A stretch of DNA of 64,000 nucleotides from Candidatus Cloacimonadales bacterium (lineage in GTDB: Bacteria; Cloacimonadota; Cloacimonadia; Cloacimonadales; JAIOQZ01): NCBI GenBank assembly GCA_963662655.2, contig CAXXTU010000002.1:320001-384000 (forward strand), read 5' to 3'. The notes below the pieces were generated by a model. That model was not told the DNA's origin. It did not search any database and saw only the letters and a program-made list of their open reading frames with translations. Within the stretch, counting starts at the first letter, position 1. Each line of letters opens with the position of its first letter. Positions 2,997 to 49,667 of this stretch are shown here, one piece after another. Position numbers and translations under genes: made by a program.

Positions 2997-3141
2997 ATCT
3001 ATCCTTTTAGAAACAAAAAAAATATAATAAATCGCGACAATAATCCGTAATCGGGCTTTTCGTGTCAAGGTATTTCTTATCAAGCAGTTGTGCGTTTTGG
3101 GACGGAAAACAGGACGTGGATTCCCGATCGTGCAACGTGCA

Positions 3142-3258
3142 GCGCGCGGCGGCGGCGTGTGCGCTGCGCGCACTAACATGATGTAAAAAGCTTTCTTCAA
3201 GAAAGCTTTTTTACATCATGCCGAAAGCCCGAATGGGCTTTACGCCGCCCCCGCGCGC
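3142..3258. repeat. Cloverleaf palindromic intergenic element, copy 1
   Basis: 17-bp GC outer stem (1 mismatch) enclosing three hairpins; same architecture as 49483-49591. Confidence 0.75.
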
Positions 3259-39921: not shown

Positions 39922-41661
39922 TTACTCAGAGATTTTGAAGTCCTTCTTTACTCCTAAAAGTTTTCCTTCATCAGTTTCGTCAGTTAGTTCCAGAACAGTG
40001 TTATTGTGTATTATCTTGGCAGTTTTGTCCTTTCCAAGAACTGATTCTACCTCGGCTATTTGGTTTTGGTTTAAAGTAGCGATATACTGATGATCCGAAC
40101 CATGAAATGTTTCAAAAGCAATCTCGAACATATCCGCTTTCTGCCTTTCGTCAACACCATCAAAAATTCGATTATCATGAAAGATGAAGTCAATCTCATG
40201 ATTCTCTCCTTTAAATAATAGTGTTGTATCATAGCAAAATATCTTCACATTATTAATTCCATCTGATCCGTCAGACTCAATTTTTGCGTCTATTCGGAAT
40301 TGTAATTGATTATCACCTTCTAAGACATTAATGGTTAATCCTGCAGTACTAGACGGGTAAAATCTTTTCGCCAGGCTCCTGAAGTATTTTGACTTCAAGC
40401 TGAAGTTTTTCTCATTCTCAATTAAATACTCTCTAGCTTGTTGAACCCCTTCAATAAGTTCTTGATCAAATACTGATTTCTTCTTGTCGTATGAATTCAA
40501 TAGTTCTCTATATTGCAGAAGCTTTTCTCTCTCAATCTCAAGTTCTGAGCATCTGTCCTTGATGTTCATTAGAACATCCAAGGCTTGATGAACATTCAAA
40601 TACTGCAGGATTCCATCAAGTTCATTTTTCAATGCCTTGTACTTCTGCTTTTCTTCACTTAGATTGGTTATGTGATCCTTCTTCTGTGATTGAAGCCTAC
40701 TCTTCCGATTTTTCAGAAGAGTACTCATGAATTTGTCAACCTCACTCAATGAAGTTCTTAATGCATCAGGAAAATACACCTGCGTTTCATTGTATATTCT
40801 TTCCATTTCTCGTGCATCAAGATCCGCAGGTTTTTGTATGCTCTTCTCGATATTGGCAATTTTTCTTTTTAGGATTTCAATATCATTTTTCTTGGCTGAA
40901 AGCCTCTCAACAAGATTGTTTTCCTTATCTTTCATATTATCATAGTCATCTGCAACCTTCAAGTTATGAATATCATGCCTTAGCTTCTCAATTTCCTCTT
41001 CAAGTTCATCTATCTTGATGTCCATATTCTTGCCGCCACCAAAAAAGCCTTGCAATAATGGATCTTTCTCAATGTTTCTCTTGAGCTTTTTTACATCTTT
41101 AAGGTCATTGATCAGTTTTAATCTAGAAGCATATAATATAGGGTCAATACCTAAAAGAAAGCCATTATAGAGTCCTGTTTGGTAAATGGATTTTGCTTTG
41201 CTTGGGGCATCAAATGAAGTATACGCTGCTCTATTATAGCGAATGAAGAAGGGCAACAGGGCACGAAAAGACAAGTATCCAATCTTCTTGGGTATATCAA
41301 AAGCCAAAGTTTCTATTTTCGTTGTAAAATCGGAGATGCTCATTGTTTTACCGTTTAAAATGATATTGCCTGGATCGGAATTAGATCTTCTGGATATATA
41401 GTGCTTATCATTGACATTAAACTCTAAAATGAAATCCCAATCGGGTAATACGTCTATGAACTGTTTGTAGGGTGTCGTACTTGCACCAAGACAATAATGT
41501 ATAAGATAGACGATTAATGATTTTCCGATACCATTATAGGTTCTGTCTCGATCTTTGCTATCAGGATTCACTTTTTGCCCGACGATAAAAGTTAAACCGC
41601 TTGGATTGAATTTCACCTCGTTAAAGCTTTTTTTGTTTGATGATAGCTTCAGTAGTTTCAT
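39922..41661 (-). CDS. SMC-like ABC ATPase (DUF2326; Lamassu LmuB/ABC-3C type)
   Basis: Walker A NGIGKS, long coiled coil, signature SDG...IFCYD, Walker B FIFHD. Confidence 0.85.
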   Translation of the reverse strand: MKLLKLSSNKKSFNEVKFNPSGLTFIVGQKVNPDSKDRDRTYNGIGKSLIVYLIHYCLGASTTPYKQFIDVLPDWDFILEFNVNDKHYISRRSNSDPGNIILNGKTMSISDFTTKIETLAFDIPKKIGYLSFRALLPFFIRYNRAAYTSFDAPSKAKSIYQTGLYNGFLLGIDPILYASRLKLINDLKDVKKLKRNIEKDPLLQGFFGGGKNMDIKIDELEEEIEKLRHDIHNLKVADDYDNMKDKENNLVERLSAKKNDIEILKRKIANIEKSIQKPADLDAREMERIYNETQVYFPDALRTSLSEVDKFMSTLLKNRKSRLQSQKKDHITNLSEEKQKYKALKNELDGILQYLNVHQALDVLMNIKDRCSELEIEREKLLQYRELLNSYDKKKSVFDQELIEGVQQAREYLIENEKNFSLKSKYFRSLAKRFYPSSTAGLTINVLEGDNQLQFRIDAKIESDGSDGINNVKIFCYDTTLLFKGENHEIDFIFHDNRIFDGVDERQKADMFEIAFETFHGSDHQYIATLNQNQIAEVESVLGKDKTAKIIHNNTVLELTDETDEGKLLGVKKDFKISE

Positions 41662-41897
41662 TTTTTCTCCAGAATGCCTTCAGTCTCTATTATTACTCCG
41701 AGTGAATACAAGAAAGACAATGCAAGGAGCATGTAATCAAAGGTATGTATATGAGTTCCTTTGTTTCTTCGACAATATTTCTGATAAGCAATCCATAATG
41801 AATCCAAAGACATTGGCTTCTTTAATAGTGATAGTATGATAGCTCCAAAGCCAAGTAAAGATTCCGATCTTGAGATATGCTTAGCCGGGACTAACAT
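41658..41897 (-). CDS. ABC-three-component middle component (LmuC-like)
   Basis: 79 aa, P-x-KHI...SLLGFGA...LALSFLYSLG, coupled between effector and ATPase. Confidence 0.75.
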   Translation of the reverse strand: MLVPAKHISRSESLLGFGAIILSLLKKPMSLDSLWIAYQKYCRRNKGTHIHTFDYMLLALSFLYSLGVIIETEGILEKK

Positions 41898-42801
41898 GTT
41901 GGCTCCTCGAAGACATCACAGGTCTCGAAGTACTTCGCAAGTATGACAATAACATGTGCTACGTAGTTCTTGTCATTTTTGGGGGCAACAGAATAAACTA
42001 GTGCCCAAAACAAATCACGACCAGAATACTCGTCGCATAACTGACGGTACTTCTTCTGAACTTCATCTCTTAATTTCGTAGAATTGAATTCGGCTAGATT
42101 TCTGAGATAGTAATCAAGCTGACTAACGTATAAAAAACTGCTTTCAAGTAGCGTTTCTGCATCACTACCAGCCAATCCATTGAATAACATCTTTTCTTCC
42201 CACGGAGGTACCGTTAACCTTTCATCTCCTGTGGGTTTTGGTGGCTGTTCACTGAGGTATTTGATAACTTCTGAAATAATGGAGTATTCCAATCTTGTCA
42301 TATCATTGAAATTTGGATAAGAAACAATTGAGTAAATTTGATCCTCTGTAAGATGATCAAAGAGGATATTTTCTAAATCTTTTGCTTGTATAACACTGGC
42401 GTCTCTTAGATTGTTATCAGTCCTAATTCCTTCAATACACCTGTAAATATCTGGGTGAACACCTTTGTACTTATCATTCACAACGAAGTGGTATTCGTTT
42501 ATATCACCGATATCTTCTCGGTTTTTTTTAAGCCCAGAGAAATCCTCTCTTGCTTTTTTCGCTGCTTCATAATACTTCGTTTCTAACTCTTCTGGGGCAT
42601 ATACTTGATAGAAGATTCCTTTTGAGCGGATGTATCCATCATTCTTTCTGTCTCCAATATTACCCCAAGGTTTGATTGAAACAAAATCTTGTTCGAAGTA
42701 ATACATGATTTTCTCGAACAAATCTTGGAATTTTTTCCATCTGCTTCGTGTATCAGCAAATGGAATAATTTCCTTGCAAAACCACTCTCGACTGCATTCA
42801 T
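41891..42801 (-). CDS. ABC-3C/Lamassu effector (PD-(D/E)XK-like nuclease + CTD), apparently frameshifted near the 5' end
   Basis: FQDLF...GDRKNDG...YQVYAPE; C-terminal YFETCDVFE; ATG 42801 with AGGA RBS lies in another frame, joined at A6 tract 42731-42736. Confidence 0.7.
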
Positions 42802-42901
42802 TTCGTAATCCTTCAAACATCCAACAATTTATTCTCCCTTTATGTTCTTCAATAGGCTCTGTCAAGTTTTTTGCCAGCAATTTTCTTCCGAAACAGATCT
42901 A

Positions 42902-43771
42902 TCAATCAATCACCGTCTCCGTCCTGCACTTCCAGTGAAACGGCGGAAAGGGCGTATGCGCTCCGGAGACTCCGATGGGTTCGTCCTTCTCATTCCTGAT
43001 GATCTGGGAGTCCTTGACCCAGGGAGCCAGGGCTTTCAACTGCTCCCTGGCTGATTCGATATTGTCCAGGTCGATCGCCATCATTTGGTTACGTACCTGA
43101 ATGGCATCGGCGAGCGGGTAACGCTTGTTCTGAGAGATAAGGGCGTAGCATATCTCGGACGTTCGATCGTCCATCGGGTTGATCAGCCTGTAATGAGTCG
43201 CCCCAGCCTGCTGATACCCCTCCAGACGCCCGAATTCACGCACACGTAGCGCTGTGTGTTCTGCAAGCCCCTGCCAGTAGTATGCCGATTGTTTGCCCAG
43301 GTCTTGAAACTCGATTTTGAGCCGGTCTGCAAGCATCTCTTGCGTATATCCTCTTCTCATTGCATCGGTCAAAGCATCGGTGAACTTACCCGAAATATCA
43401 GCGTTGAAATGCTCTCCCACCCAGAAGACGCTCTGCTCGGTGAACGTGTTGACCAGTCCTTGCTGCTCCAGCCCGTAGATACCGATAGAGATACCCGAAC
43501 CGACCTGCTTCTTGACGTCCTTCAAACCGAACTCGAACGATTTCTGGATGAAGGTCTTCGTGTCCTTGTTAACCTCAGCAGCAAAGTCCTGGCCAAGGTT
43601 CGAATTGATGATCTCGATGACCTTGTTGATGGTCTTCTCGTTCATCCGATCACCCTGGGGAATGTCCGCCAGAGCCTGTATCGAGAACCTGGCAGCCTCT
43701 TTGATTTCCTTCTTCCAGGCGTTATTGAGCACCTTGTAGTACTCGTACATCAACGTGTCGAATCGGTTCAT
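42902..43771 (-). CDS. Phage head morphogenesis protein (Mu gpF/SPP1 gp7-like)
   Basis: DDRTSEIC and PPFHWKCRT motifs. Confidence 0.88.
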   Translation of the reverse strand: MNRFDTLMYEYYKVLNNAWKKEIKEAARFSIQALADIPQGDRMNEKTINKVIEIINSNLGQDFAAEVNKDTKTFIQKSFEFGLKDVKKQVGSGISIGIYGLEQQGLVNTFTEQSVFWVGEHFNADISGKFTDALTDAMRRGYTQEMLADRLKIEFQDLGKQSAYYWQGLAEHTALRVREFGRLEGYQQAGATHYRLINPMDDRTSEICYALISQNKRYPLADAIQVRNQMMAIDLDNIESAREQLKALAPWVKDSQIIRNEKDEPIGVSGAHTPFPPFHWKCRTETVID

Positions 43772-43832
43772 CTTGTGTCCTTTGTCACTTCATTCCATTG
43801 CCCTCCCGCGGGAGGGCTCAGGGATGAGGTGG

Positions 43833-44429
43833 TCAGGCTTTGCTGAAATTGAGATTGATGAGCCGCCAGGGATCATCCAGGCTGTCACGTTCGTACACGT
43901 TGACGTATGTCCTGGTCGAGCTTATCCGAAGGGCTTCGTCAATCAGCTCCATTGCTTCTTTCCACAATGGATTCTTGTGGCTGTACTTCTTCAGCGACAG
44001 AAGCTTGGTCTTGGGTATCGATGATTTCCCCGAGCCGAAGATATCGCTGATGAGCTCTTTCAGAAGCGGATCGGAATCTTTTGTCAGCGTACCGATGAAA
44101 TCCTCGAGCTTCTGCTTTGCGAGCTGGATCTCCGGATCAAACGTGACCATGTCGCGGTTGCGGATCTCCACCTTCTTCAGTTCGTCAAAACTGATCAGCT
44201 CTTTGTTGCCCTTCCATGTCTCATCATACTGCTCTGCGAGCTTGTCCAGGTAGCCGCCCACATCGTTTGTGATGCGTTGCTTGTCCTGCTTGATTCTCTC
44301 ATTGAGTCGATGTGCGCGATCAATGGATCGCTGCACGATGTTGTTGCGCTTTACAAGTTCAGGATCAAGAATGCTCACTGGATATTCTCGTCCTTTGGCA
44401 TCGGTAAGCACTTTGACTGTCTTTGCCAT
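43833..44429 (-). CDS. DUF3164 family protein
   Basis: DAKGR-x-x-P, KGN-x-x-L-x-SFD, FD-x-x-IQLAK, WKEAM-x-x-I, INLNF pattern. Confidence 0.75.
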   Translation of the reverse strand: MAKTVKVLTDAKGREYPVSILDPELVKRNNIVQRSIDRAHRLNERIKQDKQRITNDVGGYLDKLAEQYDETWKGNKELISFDELKKVEIRNRDMVTFDPEIQLAKQKLEDFIGTLTKDSDPLLKELISDIFGSGKSSIPKTKLLSLKKYSHKNPLWKEAMELIDEALRISSTRTYVNVYERDSLDDPWRLINLNFSKA

Positions 44430-44459
44430 TCGTAGCTCCTTTATCGTATTTGATTGTGG

Positions 44460-45543
44460 TCAATATCTCAGTGTCCGGACACGAAATCGATTTCTGCCGA
44501 TGTCGTATTCGTTGAATCGTTCCAAGCAGCCAGCTACAGCGTCACAGCCGTCGATGTAGCCCTGGGGATAGGTGAGGAACTGGCTGATCAGTTTGGGGGT
44601 GTCCTGCCCGTCAGGGAAAAGCAGTTTGCCGCTCTCGATAATGGTATCGAGACGCTCGATCCGCTTGTTCTTGTTCTCTTTGTTGTTGATTCTGCGGAAG
44701 TGGTGCGAGATGGGCGTCAGACCGGTATCATGAGCCCAGCGATCGAAGTCTGCCAGGATGCGATCCTGACCGAAAACGGTCTCGATCGAGGGCCTGAATA
44801 TCGCTCCGAACTGTTTGCTACGATGCAGGAATGTCTCGTAAAGGTACTGGAAGTAGCTCGAGCTCTTCGTTTGCCGAACCCATACGTCGATGATATAGAA
44901 GTGATTGCCGTCCCATCCTGCTGTTATCACAGCCTTGTACGCGCCTTTCTCGCCCCAGGCTGGATCCGAGTACAGCCACACCTGCGTGAAGGGATCGTTG
45001 TCGTTCGAGTGCTTCTTGAACCACTCATGCTTGAAAATGTTGCCCTCGATGACGGGCTTGCCCAGCATCTCACGCTGATAGCCAACGTTGCCCAACTTTT
45101 TCCGAAGTGCTGGCAGGCTTGCGGTGGGATACTGCTCTTCCCACACTGAATTCCCATTCTCATCTTCAACCGGGTACCGGAGAAGAATCCCTGACTCCGC
45201 TTCAATGTGTTTCACGTCGCCCGGATCAAACCCTTGGTGATCCTCTTTGATCTCATCGATCAGCTTGTCCTGGTACTGACAGATCGCATAGTTCGGATGT
45301 ACCAGGTTACCCAGCCAGATGATTCGTCCACCGCCCTGGGGATTCAAGGAGCCACCAATCTCCTGAATGATCTTGTCCATCTTACGATGACCGATTGATT
45401 GATTGCCTTGATTCTTGTCCTGGTCGATGTCATCACAGACCACAAGCCCAGGTCGCAAAGCCGTTCTGGGATTCACGGTACCGCGAATTGACTGGAGAAC
45501 AGACCTTGCCCGGATCCGGGTCTTGTTCCGGAGAAAGAAGTTC
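44460..45543 (-). pseudogene. Terminase large subunit, 5'-truncated by ISL3
   Basis: RPGLVVCDDID, YQREM, SDPA, K-x-x-RI, DGCDA motifs; first 18 codons of the listed ORF come from the IS end. Confidence 0.85.
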
Positions 45544-46890
45544 GGCACTGTTGCAAACTTAGTGGGTAAGTCGGAAAAAAGATAGAGAGGAATCACCCGA
45601 TCTCGTACAATCTCCTAATCACCACAACAAGGAGATAGAGATGAATGATCCTCTCAGAAAACAAGTCTGTAAAACGTTGTTGGCTTTGCAAGGTTATTCT
45701 GCCGACCAGATAATCGAAGGTACGTATCAAACTTATCCATGCATTGAAGTCCATGTTCGAAAGGAAGATGAGCCACGTTGTCCTACATGCGGTATTGTGG
45801 GAACAGTTTATGATCATCGAGTCCGCAAAATTCTTCATGCATCCATATCCTGTCGTCCCGTAGTACTTGTGCTGACGCTTCGCCGGATCAACTGCGCTCA
45901 GTGTGGAGTGAAAACTGAACAACAGGATATTGCCGAGGGTCTCAATCGACACTCTAAAGACTTCGGCAATAAGGTTCTCCAGTTCACGCTTCGTTCAGAC
46001 AATGCTTCTGTAGCACGGATATTCGGTGTGGATCGGAGTACGATTTATCGAATCGACAAAATTGAGTTATCCAAGTTGGAAAAGGGTTATAGAGGACGAG
46101 TTCCGAATGTCGATCAGATTGCAATTGACGAGATTGGTTATAAGCGAAGGCATAAGTATGCAACGGTTATCACAAACCATGAGGACGGGCGTGTGATCGA
46201 CCTGACAATGGGCAAATCGAAAGAAAGTGCGAAGGAGTTGTTTCGAAAATACGAACGACGACTCCGCTGGATTGATACCGTAACAATGGATTTCAGTGGT
46301 TCATATATCGGCGCTGTTTCCGAGTGTTGGAGTGCCGATATGATCGTATTTGATCGTTTCCATTTCAGCCGCCTGGTCAACAGAAAAGTGGAAGAAGTAC
46401 GACGAGAACTTCAGAGAGATTTTGAATCTGACAAGTTGCGTCAGAGCAAGAAACACGACCGGTGGTTGGTTTTGACCAGAAAACACAATCACAAAGAAAA
46501 CCATCAAGCCCGACTCAAGAAACTGGAGACGCTAAATCATCCCCTTTACGAAGCCTATTTGCTCAAAGAAGATTTACTATCGATTTTCGAAGACGATATT
46601 ACGCAAGAAGAAGCGAAGCCGATGATTGAAGAGTGGTGCAGAGTTATTCAGAAAACCGTCTTCGAGCCACTGAAGGCACTTGCAAGAACGATTATGAAGA
46701 GATTGCATATTGTGTTGAACTGGTTCAAGCATAGAATCACGAATGCCAAGGCAGAAGCGGTTAACAACGTCATTCGAACCATTATAAAGAGAGCGTATGG
46801 ATACAAGGACTTCTCATACTTCAGATTGAAGGTTCTGCAATGTTGCGGATATCTGAATACCCATTCACCCACTTAATATGCAACAGTGCC
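45544..46890 (+). mobile_element. ISL3 family insertion sequence (1347 bp)
   Basis: 24-bp terminal inverted repeats GGCACTGTTGCA... (21/24 match) at 45544-45567 and 46867-46890; no target duplication. Confidence 0.92.
45641..46876 (+). CDS. ISL3 family transposase
   Basis: Zn finger CPTCG...CAQCG, HTH, IAIDE, TMD, DRFH, TNAKAEAVN...AYGY. Confidence 0.93.
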   Translation: MNDPLRKQVCKTLLALQGYSADQIIEGTYQTYPCIEVHVRKEDEPRCPTCGIVGTVYDHRVRKILHASISCRPVVLVLTLRRINCAQCGVKTEQQDIAEGLNRHSKDFGNKVLQFTLRSDNASVARIFGVDRSTIYRIDKIELSKLEKGYRGRVPNVDQIAIDEIGYKRRHKYATVITNHEDGRVIDLTMGKSKESAKELFRKYERRLRWIDTVTMDFSGSYIGAVSECWSADMIVFDRFHFSRLVNRKVEEVRRELQRDFESDKLRQSKKHDRWLVLTRKHNHKENHQARLKKLETLNHPLYEAYLLKEDLLSIFEDDITQEEAKPMIEEWCRVIQKTVFEPLKALARTIMKRLHIVLNWFKHRITNAKAEAVNNVIRTIIKRAYGYKDFSYFRLKVLQCCGYLNTHSPT

Positions 46891-47487
46891 TAATATAATA
46901 CCTGTGAACCCACCTACATTCGTACAGCCATTGACTTCGCCACTGAAATGACAACTATCTACCATTGTATACATGCTCATGAGTCCAACCAATCCACCAA
47001 CATTATTTTCCCCAGTAACACTGCCTGTAACTTTACAATGTGTAATCTCTGTTACCCAACACATGCCAGCCAGGCCGCCTGATTTGTTGTTCCCCATAAT
47101 TTCTACATTCAATAATTTCACAAAAGATATTTCAGCCCTCTCTGTCTTTGCGAACAATCCAGTATTGACTGAAGTATTTCTTCGGATGCAAATATCCTCA
47201 ATTGAGTGATTCTGACCGTTGTAGATTCCTTTGAATTCTCCATCCGTTCCGATAGGAAGAAAGCCTTCTCCTCCGTTCCAGTTCTCGGTATCGGAGGCGT
47301 CGATGTCGGCGGTTTGAATGAAATGGCTCTCCCATGACTCGGGCGTAGTGCTCAACCAGAGGAGGTTGTCGAGGGTTGCGATCTGGTAGGGAGAATTCTC
47401 CGTTCCGGAACCTTCCGGCTGAACGCCGTCGGCGAATGCAATCGATGTGCTGAGTAGAAGCATGCAAAATACAATCAGAGTACGCAT
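46891..47487 (-). pseudogene. GLUG-repeat secreted protein, 3'-truncated by ISL3
   Basis: Signal peptide, GSGT-x-x-SPYQI, VGGLVG repeats; terminal GTVAY-stop is read from the IS inverted repeat. Confidence 0.8.
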
Positions 47488-47639: not shown

Positions 47640-49338
47640 TTATTTCTTCAAGCCAAACGGCCAGGCCATAAGTCCGCCTTCGAGGACGCGGACGTTCGTG
47701 TAGCCCAGTCCACGAAGAATGCAGGAGGCTTCATAGCCACGCAGTGATATCTTGCACCACGTGATGATGGGGGCGTCTTTATCCTGCGGAAGTTTATCCG
47801 TCATCTGGCGGAGTTTTCCGAGCGGGATGAGCGTTTCCCCTGCATCCAGGCGCATCTGCTCGTATTCGTCCGGACCACGGACATCGAGCAGGAACGGTTT
47901 TTCTTCGTCATTTTCGATGATCGCTTTGAGTTCCATGGAGCTGATTCCGTCCATGCGTTTGAGGAGCTTGTTCTCTAGAACGTGAACCGCCGTGATGAAT
48001 CCATCCAGTGCCTGAGAGAAAGGCGGGGCGTAGGGGAGATCGAGGTTCACGAGCTGATGGACGTGCATGCAGTTGTGCAATGCCATTGCGCCGATTGCGA
48101 GGCGTTTGGAGACGTCACCGGGGCCTGCGGCTTGCATACCGAGGAGCTTACCCGTGGATTTATCGGCCACCAGCTTGATGATGAGGAGCTTACCACCCAT
48201 GAAGCCGGGTTTGTCCGGCGCTGCGTGTATGGCTGTCATGATATTGCTGTAGCCTTCGGCGCGTGCGCGTGACTCGGAGAGTCCGACGCTGCCGACGGTG
48301 TAATCGAAAACCTTGCAGATACCGGTCATGATCGCGCCCGGGTATTCCGTGCGGTTGCCAAGAACCATGTTCTGGGCGGCAACGCGACCCTGGAGGTTGG
48401 CGGCGTCGCCCATGGGCCAGTGGATTTTATTGAACGTTACCAGGTCGGTGATTTCAACGCAATCGCCTGCCGCGAAGATATCGTGATTGCTGGTCTGCAT
48501 GAAGTTGTTCACGCAGATCGCGCCTTTGACGCCGAGCTTCAGGTTGGCAGTCTTTGCCAGCTCGTTGTTCGGCTTTACGCCGATCGATACGACGACGAAA
48601 TCGGCTTCGAGCGCTTCACCGTTATCGAGTTTCACACCGCTGACTTTGCCTTCGCCGAGGAATTCGGTGGCTGCAACGCCGGTGATGACCCGCGCACCCT
48701 TTTGGTGGAGGTGATTTTGCACGATGAGCGCCATTTCTGGATCGAGGAATGGCAGGATGTAGGGAAGCTTCTCGACAACAGTTACCTTGATTCCCGCAAG
48801 CGCGAACGCTTCCGCGGTCTCGATGCCGATCAGTCCACCGCCGATGATAACGGCCTTCTTGATCGAATTGCTCTTCACCTTTTCCTTGATGAAAAGGGCG
48901 TTGTTGATATCGTGAAGGGTCGTGACGTTCTCCAGATCGATACCCTTGATGGGCGGTTTGATCGGAGATGCGCCCACGGCGAGCATGAGCTTGTCATAAG
49001 GCAAATCTTCCGTTTTTACCGTCTGCCAGCGAACGTACCGTCACCTGCTTCTTTTCGGGATCGAATCATGATTGCCTCGGTGTTCGTTCTCGCGATTACC
49101 TTCTTGGCGTTCTTGAAAAAATGATTCGTCGCGGGGAGCTCCAGTCGGAGTGCAGACGAGTTTCTCCTTTTCGTCGAACATCCCACCGATGAAATAGGGA
49201 TATCCGCATGAAGCCATCGACATATATGACCCTTTCTGAATAAGGGTGATCTCTGCGCCTTTCGTCCAAGCGACGAATCTTCGCTGCGGTTTTGGGGCCT
49301 GCAGCCGCTCCGCCGATAATCAGATACCGTGTTGCCAT
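47640..49338 (-). CDS. CoA-disulfide reductase/NADH oxidase with C-terminal rhodanese; 5' part frameshifted
   Basis: IIGGAAAG, SCGYPY, GGGLIG, AAGD, YAPPFS, rhodanese CKISLRG; four +1 bases in short runs between 49010 and 49265. Confidence 0.85.
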
Positions 49339-49482
49339 ATTTCCTCCTTTATGAACCATCGTGCAAAACGGACCAATTTCTGTCAAGCATGCGCATTCCC
49401 CTCTTTAGCCGTCAAATGATTCGTGCGTTATTAAAGAAAATAAGGTTTTCCGTGCGTGACATAGAGTTTTCTGCCCGATCCA

Positions 49483-49591
49483 GCGCGGGGCGGCGGGTGT
49501 GCTGCGCACACGGTTCGTTCACTTGATAACATGCCCGAGTTATCAAGTGAACGAACCAGGGAAGCCGGAGGCTTCCGCCGCCGCCCCGCGC
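49483..49591. repeat. Cloverleaf palindromic intergenic element, copy 2
   Basis: 14-bp perfect outer stem plus three perfect hairpins. Confidence 0.75.
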
Positions 49592-49633: not shown

Positions 49634-49667
49634 AAAAAAAAGCTCTGGATGGCTTATCCAGAGCTTT
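49634..49667 (-). terminator. Rho-independent terminator of ABC permease
   Basis: AGCTCTGGAT/ATCCAGAGCT stem with a U run on the minus strand. Confidence 0.75.

Follow-up and report, generated by a model that had tools for sequence, protein, structure and literature searches.

Cloverleaf-folding palindromic repeats, very probably mobile, dispersed in a Candidatus Cloacimonadales genome

The window, the whole 64,000-nucleotide stretch of DNA that was analysed, contains two elements that share a four-way fold although their long arms have no usable sequence in common. This raises the question whether RNA or single-stranded DNA is the folded form under selection, and how the copies came to their sites. 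The first-pass annotation, made from the sequence alone, had offered an unrecognised ncRNA or a folded mobile or recombination substrate of REPIN or attC type. It proposed a genome-wide search, a covariation test, a comparison with Rfam, and a look for empty sites in relatives and for a linked HUH/Y1 transposase.

Sequence and coordinates of both copies (3142-3258 and 49483-49591) were verified. Folding of either strand gave an outer stem and three hairpins, with DNA energies by strand of -54.7/-57.8 kcal/mol for copy 1 and -56.5/-55.4 kcal/mol for copy 2. The DNA folds had z scores of -10.8 to -12.0, and none of 200 shuffles was as stable in any of the four. RNA parameters gave z scores of -10.9 and -11.8. 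The same fold is thus present twice, as first described, at z of about -11. A covariance model run across the window matched these two loci only. Copy 1 was spanned without differences by contigs from runs X1 and X2, which may be the source data.

Both copies are short-form elements, described here on the + strand. The outer stem of copy 1 (3142..3258) is a terminal inverted repeat with a 5' arm at 3142..3158 and a 3' arm at 3242..3258. Hairpin 1 (3159..3173) reads GTGCGC-TGC-GCGCAC, on the opposite strand a GC-GCA-GC DNA mini-hairpin. Hairpin 2 (3177..3220) is the variable long arm of 20 bp with one bulge, and hairpin 3 (3224..3241) is AAAGCCC-GAAT-GGGCTTT; in the long form of the family the latter is an imperfect arm of 70-110 nt. 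Copy 2 (49483..49591) has outer stem arms at 49483..49496 and 49578..49591, which pair with each other. Its hairpin 1 (49497..49511) is GTGTGC-TGC-GCACAC, hairpin 2 (49512..49557) has 19 perfect base pairs and an 8-nt loop, and hairpin 3 (49560..49576) is GGAAGCC-GGA-GGCTTCC. The long hairpins pair though their sequences are unrelated, and the changes in hairpins 1 and 3 are compensatory, both as first noted.

Copy 1 lies between divergent genes for an M23 peptidase (-) and a CapA/PGA_cap protein (+), outside the predicted -35 box of the M23 gene at 3068, the sole predicted promoter there. Copy 2 is flanked on one side by the predicted terminator of an ABC permease gene (49639-49667, - strand) and on the other by the start of a gene for a pyridine-nucleotide oxidoreductase (-). 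Promoter and terminator prediction found no promoter-like site feeding either copy. The word CCCGATC, reported before both copies, is at chance level and is no feature of the family: it stands 10 nt before the CA in copy 1 and directly before it in copy 2, and occurs 14 times in the window where 13.9 are expected. Copy 2 is preceded by a weakly conserved flank ending in CA (49464..49482, +; flank comparison), which is either part of the element or a target preference, the boundary not being fixed.

The genome-wide search found further copies. The source assembly (G000, 3.81 Mb, contigs C1 and C2) holds 78 copies by motif and structure searches, 76 of them complete, with a length of 105-210 nt. 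The list was built from 74 candidates by removal of one false match inside a gene (C2:3104116) and addition of five; a relaxed search of the assembly gave no more. Two 5'-only remnants (C2:1165391 and 3617725) have no partner end within 3 kb. Structural statistics rest on the 69 copies handled by the parser, 32 short (105-134 nt) and 37 long (146-203 nt), the latter with a longer third arm that pairs imperfectly. The median length of hairpin 2 is 19 bp (range 7-24); it is 97.2% Watson-Crick paired and is perfect in 45 of 69 copies. Its sequence is distinct in 67 of 69, with a mean pairwise identity of 0.28 over 1891 pairs. The suggestion of a real family with selection on structure is borne out by an arm of 28% identity that is nevertheless 97% paired. 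Across 76 complete copies, a fixed scaffold is separated from an arm with random-level identity.

The covariation test supported the family. The score was 0.714 versus 0.150 for shuffled and 0.07-0.11 for slid partners, in a model-fitted alignment of 37 rows (31 loci and six reverse-strand duplicates) whose fitting inflates the score. All 15 pairs of hairpin 2 showed two-sided change in this alignment; in a MAFFT alignment, two-sided change was already present in 16 of 28 pairs. One-sided changes were rare in the covariation alignment, as expected for DNA or for re-copying.

The copies are dispersed between genes. Overlap with called ORFs was absent in 74 of 78, the median spacing was 38 kb, arrays were not seen and all four gene orientations occurred. 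Convergent gaps held 24 copies, divergent gaps 20 and tandem gaps 34, against a background of 207, 298 and 871 among 1376 gaps, so that convergent gaps are over-represented. In tandem gaps, the top strand was sense in 21 cases and antisense in 13.

The ends are inverted repeats of 13-19 bp that differ between copies and match within a copy; the elements have no coding capacity. The CA and GG flanks noticed earlier are a genuine mark of polarity, but a partial one: among the 69 parsed copies, CAG stands on the hairpin 1 side in 37, on the hairpin 3 side in six, on both in one and on neither in 25. Relative to these polar ends, the interior was flipped in six of 44 polarised copies. On the bottom strand, the tetranucleotide after the outer stem was GTTG in 18, GTAG in eight, GTGG in six, GGCG in six and another in 31 of 69; on the top strand, GTGT (33) and GCGT (18) were frequent. 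The 5' flank was enriched in CCGAC, CGACT and CTCGA, and CCGA stood beside the 5' end in 32 of 68 copies (11.4 expected). A target duplication of 2-8 nt was found at no offset: the best of about 4500 offsets and lengths reached 6 of 68 versus 1.4 expected, the exact ends not being fixed and a sliding 2-nt duplication being possible. Neither a fixed-position U-tract nor a match to a dif-like motif was found in the copies.

Sister copies occupy unrelated sites and differ in two ways. C2:725709 and 1813673, of opposite end polarity, are separated by seven two-sided and two one-sided changes, and 2629188 and 2981210 by seven and six. Further pairs changed mostly on one side (two-sided versus one-sided 3 vs 13, 4 vs 10 and 0 vs 4), and the segmental duplicates 2159047/2239361 had none two-sided and two one-sided. 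Point changes may gather in place and then be symmetrised by arm re-copying or by movement of well-folded copies only.

The loop of hairpin 1 gives information on the folded form. In 78 copies, it is TNC in 57 (TTC 29, TCC 19, TGC 6, TAC 3) and GNA in five, the latter being flipped. Together these loops make up 62 of 78, compared with 49 of 309 background GC-NNN-GC hairpins. A TNC loop reads GC-GNA-GC on the other strand, the DNA mini-hairpin GCGNAGC. This motif is an extra-stable DNA mini-hairpin with melting temperatures in the order GAA, GGA, GCA, GTA, and the related RNA r(GCGAAAGC) falls far short of the DNA form in stability (PMC13037366). The loops rank in the same way in background hairpins (22, 13, 9 and 5), so the rank is no evidence and only the fixed first and third bases count. 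The loop bias suggests selection on folded single-stranded DNA.

The expansion is specific to one genome. The hairpin 1 pattern occurred in four of 232 genomes of the phylum, all of one genus, with 56 matches in G000 and one each in the congeners G001, G002 and G003. The G002 match was rejected as a congener copy or a horizontal transfer; its contig, G002:C10, is likely a mis-binned piece of G000. The true congener copies, one in G001 and one in G003, are both upstream of queD and have different arms; G000 and G002 have no copy there. Neither window site carries the element in any of the three congeners, which was the check on empty sites proposed at first. For copy 1, two anchors are about 71 nt apart in the congeners and 197 nt apart in G000, a difference of 126 nt; intergenic DNA is too diverged among the congeners for the junctions to be fixed. 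Since both sites are empty in three of three congeners, the element is very probably mobile DNA rather than a conserved ncRNA gene. In a collection of genome contigs, the long pattern had no match. The short pattern had 13: two in the genus, two in Polyangiales and nine without the full fold. No family member was among 28 metagenome and 12 viral-contig pattern matches. A description of the family was not found in the literature within reach, which excluded most subscription journals and bioRxiv supplements.

The 38-kb contig G002:C10 (L299, L300) bears on the completeness of the source assembly. It encodes the end of fliK, flgD-fliR, a kdsA-like gene, pyrE and a hisS-like gene, and carries one cloverleaf copy, 91% like G000 C1:115433, and two copies of a second repeat family, B. 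Its pyrE and fliM occur twice in G002 (85-87% identity) and are missing from G000. The end of G000:C2 falls within a tandem repeat of fliK, and the fliK end is where C10 begins; the G000 assembly also breaks at prophages. The runs that contain the window also contain the 16 kb of C10 that were compared, without differences and at similar depth. Joints at L299:9634-9717 were discarded; their sides are short and derive from other copies of the repeat. Because of the gene duplication in G002, the break in fliK and the identical sequence in the same runs, C10 is most likely the missing continuation of G000:C2, and G000 is incomplete.

The cloverleaf is very probably a mobile repeat, as the REPIN-like alternative of the first-pass annotation had it: 78 copies, empty orthologous sites and a lineage-specific expansion agree with it. 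Given mobility, folded single-stranded DNA is likely the selected form. How the repeat moves is less clear. The favoured reading, with about even prospects of being right, is a non-autonomous element whose folded single strand is moved by an HUH enzyme, now lost or encoded in an unassembled part of the genome. The strand would be excised and re-inserted by a Y1/RAYT-type enzyme supplied in trans. Recognition may involve the outer GC stem, hairpin 1 and the foot of hairpin 3, whereas hairpin 2 and the tip of hairpin 3 would need pairing alone, so that their letters could drift. The arms may remain complementary because only well-folded copies moved and arms were occasionally re-copied from their partners by template switching within the repeat; this would turn over the loops and the interior as well. 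Copy number, empty sites in three of three congeners, covariation and loop bias are consistent with this, as is the lack of at least a 38-kb piece from G000.

The search for the enzyme itself went against the HUH reading. The linked HUH/Y1 transposase that had been suggested was not found in assembled G000, which has a gap: the best E values were 0.38 for PF01797 and 0.28 for NF047646, and tblastn with 17 translated frames from congener and family Y1 loci reached 0.09. Searches of the assembled genome for IS110, IS91 Y2 and TnpB gave no match, an HUH-like regular expression over 2899 gene calls only two unrelated ones, and the ORF list of the 38-kb contig no RAYT. Neither an element-linked protein cluster nor a gene enclosed by a pair of cloverleaf ends was found in G000. 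The congeners, with 0-1 cloverleaf copies each, have 3-7 Y1 matches each, flanked by unrelated repeats; their Y1 proteins include an IS200-like type of 137 aa and RAYT-like ones of 190-275 aa. Several Y1 genes of G001-G003 are REP-flanked, none was detected in G000, and six congener REP motifs had no exact match there. The gene directly after xerD in G001 and G003 is an IS200-like Y1 gene that has repeats of its own; in G000 a cloverleaf copy occupies this site. The repeats are unrelated and the shared site was judged a coincidence. GIY-YIG candidates in G000 were rejected; they are a UvrC-size protein and a small, broken gene that has repeats of another kind. A small GIY-YIG gene in G003 (L252, L254) lies apparently inside a likely 23S rRNA gene, in two copies.

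Further points are difficult for an HUH enzyme. GTAG follows the outer stem in only eight of 69 copies, the mismatch polarity is mixed and several sister pairs are more one-sided than two-sided. The cloverleaf copies on C2 have no replication-strand bias (37 vs 38 of 75). Near-perfect stems are hard to reconcile with a long-lost enzyme. Overall, a Y1-type HUH enzyme as the mover has roughly even chances. The expansion is in the one genus member without a findable Y1 transposase, and if a closed genome confirms the absence, this would point to a mobiliser of a new kind. The data are assembled contigs, in which neither an excision product nor an exact insertion junction was seen.

The strand bias missing from the cloverleaf is present in family B. 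G000 has 118 loci of this family, 101 complete, mostly of about 125 nt and some of 150-230 nt (e.g., G000:C2:234911-235108, 277346-277468 and 780636-780755). They fold into a rod whose internal loops are fixed and whose stems vary but stay paired. Family B had no match in the window and none to an Rfam family. It occurs in four of 232 genomes of the phylum, in the genus only, with 53 exact pattern matches in G000 and 4-7 in the others. One strand is on the leading-strand sense in 87 of 114 copies (87 vs 27), and the bias is seen in convergent (36/50), divergent (10/10) and antisense tandem gaps (15/21). This is a mark of fork-linked single-strand mobility. Some copies of both families have short motifs in common. 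A tandem array of the apical module of family B, with a period of about 91, is located at G000:C2:606596-606900.

Among known systems, the cloverleaf works most like a REPIN. REPINs are described with inverted ends, a spacer whose length and pairing matter, frequent compensatory changes and a less stable alternative 'clover' fold (PMC3116915). Both are small, extragenic, lineage-specific and multi-copy (Bertels and Rainey 2011, PMC3116915; Quentin 2018, PMC6006769; Corneloup 2021, PMC8266576), with inverted ends around a spacer of variable sequence whose pairing is kept by compensatory change, and without target duplication. Several listed REPs also have TTC, TCC or TGC loops (PMC6006769, supplement 2), and abundant REPs often occur without their RAYT (PMC3686654). 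Differences lie in the ground state, a four-way junction with three inner hairpins rather than the one long hairpin described for REPINs, and in the lack of an invariant GTAG/GTGG foot (or CGTC), the ends varying between copies. Neither a cognate RAYT nor tandem BIME-like arrays were found for the cloverleaf. As its tetranucleotide foot is variable and no cognate RAYT was found, it is not filed as REP/REPIN and is best taken as a variant among non-autonomous palindromic repeats, very probably mobile. The family may be informative on the replication of REPIN-like repeats and on the way in which their arms stay paired.

Other likenesses are partial. TIR repeats/TIRtrons (Di Nocera 2013, PMC3733652) and class 2.6/3 repeats (PMC6006769) are non-GTAG inverted repeats tied to Y1. 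The CnGA foot of class 3 structures recalls the CCGA enriched in the cloverleaf 5' flank (PMC6006769), but the cloverleaf has no flanked transposase gene and no sequence match to the listed repeats. Closest in shape is bcr1 of the Bacillus cereus group, a dispersed, non-autonomous, cruciform-like repeat of about 155 bp with compensatory changes, non-conserved positions and an unclear mobiliser (PMC3184786). It differs by two inner stem-loops, 5-bp flanking direct repeats and transcription (PMC3184786), whereas the cloverleaf has three hairpins inside the outer stem, lacks direct repeats and includes an arm whose identity between copies is at random level. IS200/IS605 elements show an orientation bias towards the lagging-strand template; the cloverleaf has none, and G000 lacks TnpA (Y1) and TnpB.

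Movement without a dedicated transposase is an unlikely explanation, but not a negligible one. Host recombination or resolution enzymes would copy the folded strand by a rolling-hairpin-like hairpin transfer; the fold would mimic a Holliday junction or hairpin end, the arm would be rewritten from its partner, and loops or interior would be flipped. Parvovirus/AAV termini are branched DNA hairpins whose arms are complementary by re-copying and which occur in flip/flop orientation; they are the ends of a linear viral genome with its own HUH Rep. The analogy is one of mechanism only, the cloverleaf being an internal, dispersed bacterial repeat. The largest expansion is in the one genome without a Y1, IS91, IS110 or TnpB match, the interior (6/44) and the hairpin 1 loop (5/78) are flipped in some copies, both strands fold alike and a replichore bias is absent, all as such copying would have it. 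One cloverleaf copy follows xerD and one family B copy xerC (G000:C2:1848596 and 1153565). This adjacency was noticed post hoc, elements adjoin 385 of the 2899 called genes, and the congeners have the same Xer genes without the expansion. SbcD gave weak matches only, alike in five of five genomes, with G000 no different from the congeners. No such bacterial mechanism was found in the literature searched, and the G000 assembly is incomplete.

A broader version would define a class by shape only: four-way junctions with GCGNAGC caps and no known transposase, copied by hairpin transfer in unrelated phyla (Cloacimonadota, Myxococcota) by an undiscovered or host-borrowed enzyme that also expands the fork-oriented rod family. 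This is speculative and probably wrong. The Polyangiales genome G232 (L269-L283) has 14 copies of a nested palindromic element of about 330 nt with a similar cloverleaf core: hairpin 1 and the GGCG foot that follows CTCA are the same, the middle arm varies and the third hairpin has the form GC-NNN-GC. It scores 25-34 bits with the cloverleaf covariance model, is closed by much longer inverted repeats and is multi-copy in one of 151 Polyangiales genomes. The layout of these repeats, judged by eye, is like that around IS200-like Y1 genes, which speaks for the HUH reading, and the single Y1 gene of G232 is flanked by other, similarly built inverted repeats. The likeness to the Cloacimonadales cloverleaf may be due to homology or to convergence.

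A structured RNA is quite unlikely as the nature of the cloverleaf, whether as an ncRNA in many copies or as a retro-mobile element copied through RNA. Strong covariation would fit it. Top-strand mismatches are more often G-T than A-C (44 vs 22), the top strand gives the better RNA fold in 47 of 69 copies and is more often sense than antisense in tandem gaps (21 vs 13). The mismatch polarity is mixed: the long hairpin 3 favours the top strand (29 vs 8), while the outer stem (5 vs 13) and the hairpin 1 loop favour the bottom strand. Sites differ across species. Copy 1 lies between divergent genes and copy 2 past a predicted terminator, without a promoter-like site. The loops are the DNA GNA motif and not cUUCGg or GNRA tetraloops. 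The proposed comparison with Rfam found only tRNA in the window at E up to 1 and no match for the cloverleafs. The sole reverse transcriptase match in G000 is a broken DRT3b/DRT4-like gene (G000:C2:981049-982608), and G001 has none. The idea of an unrecognised, conserved ncRNA gene is not supported: its positions vary, the two strands fold alike and the loops suit DNA mini-hairpins. For ncRNA discovery this is a caution, as folded DNA, rather than an RNA gene, is the most likely source of the very strong covariation here.

Slightly less plausible still is a classical MITE. A DDE transposase would bind the terminal inverted repeats of 13-19 bp and move the element as double-stranded DNA, and template switching in place, not selection, would keep the inner hairpins perfect. 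The elements do have terminal inverted repeats, are non-coding and measure 105-210 nt, and resemble in this the bacterial MITEs NEMIS, RUP and ERIC, described as shorter than 400 bp with a stable fold (PMC3184786). G000 also holds about 13 ISL3 and eight IS3-type copies and Mu-like prophages. The target duplication expected of a MITE (2-8 nt) did not stand out at any offset, and no insertion sequence with matching ends was found; ISL3 and IS3-type elements were rejected as mobilisers, their ends being unlike those of the cloverleaf. Inverted repeats that vary between copies and match within them are unsuited to a protein that reads the duplex, and the fixed T and C of the hairpin 1 loop would be left unexplained.

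There is a slim chance that the repeat is a cis element which the host selects as a terminator, mRNA stabiliser or nucleoid-protein site and which gene conversion has spread. It would account for the excess in convergent gaps and for the one site that is filled in G001 and G003 with different arms. However, 20 of 78 copies lie between divergent genes, no fixed U-tract is present and sister species, which have the same genes, almost lack the family. An origin as dispersed, attC-like sites for the recombination of integron cassettes is very improbable, although folded DNA, a variable apical arm, GC-TNC-GC tips and AAGCC/GGCTT boxes resemble attC: no integron integrase reached the TIGR02249 cut-off in any of four genus genomes (best 69 bits, cut-off 265), a cassette layout is lacking, with all four orientations, a median spacing of 38 kb and no arrays, the fold is four-way and not one hairpin, and inspection against the attC consensus showed no core-site boxes at the ends.

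Other features of the window were noted. An ISL3 copy lies at 45544-46892; the about 13 copies in the genome are near-identical and inserted in A/T runs, and three elsewhere adjoin cloverleaf copies. The pyridine-nucleotide oxidoreductase/rhodanese gene at 47640-49345 is out of frame near its 5' end (pieces at 49016-49345), either as a pseudogene or by an assembly error. ABC-three-component-like genes (AAA_23/DUF2326, CTD10) at 39922-45596 adjoin phage remnants (SPP1 gp7-like, terminase-like).
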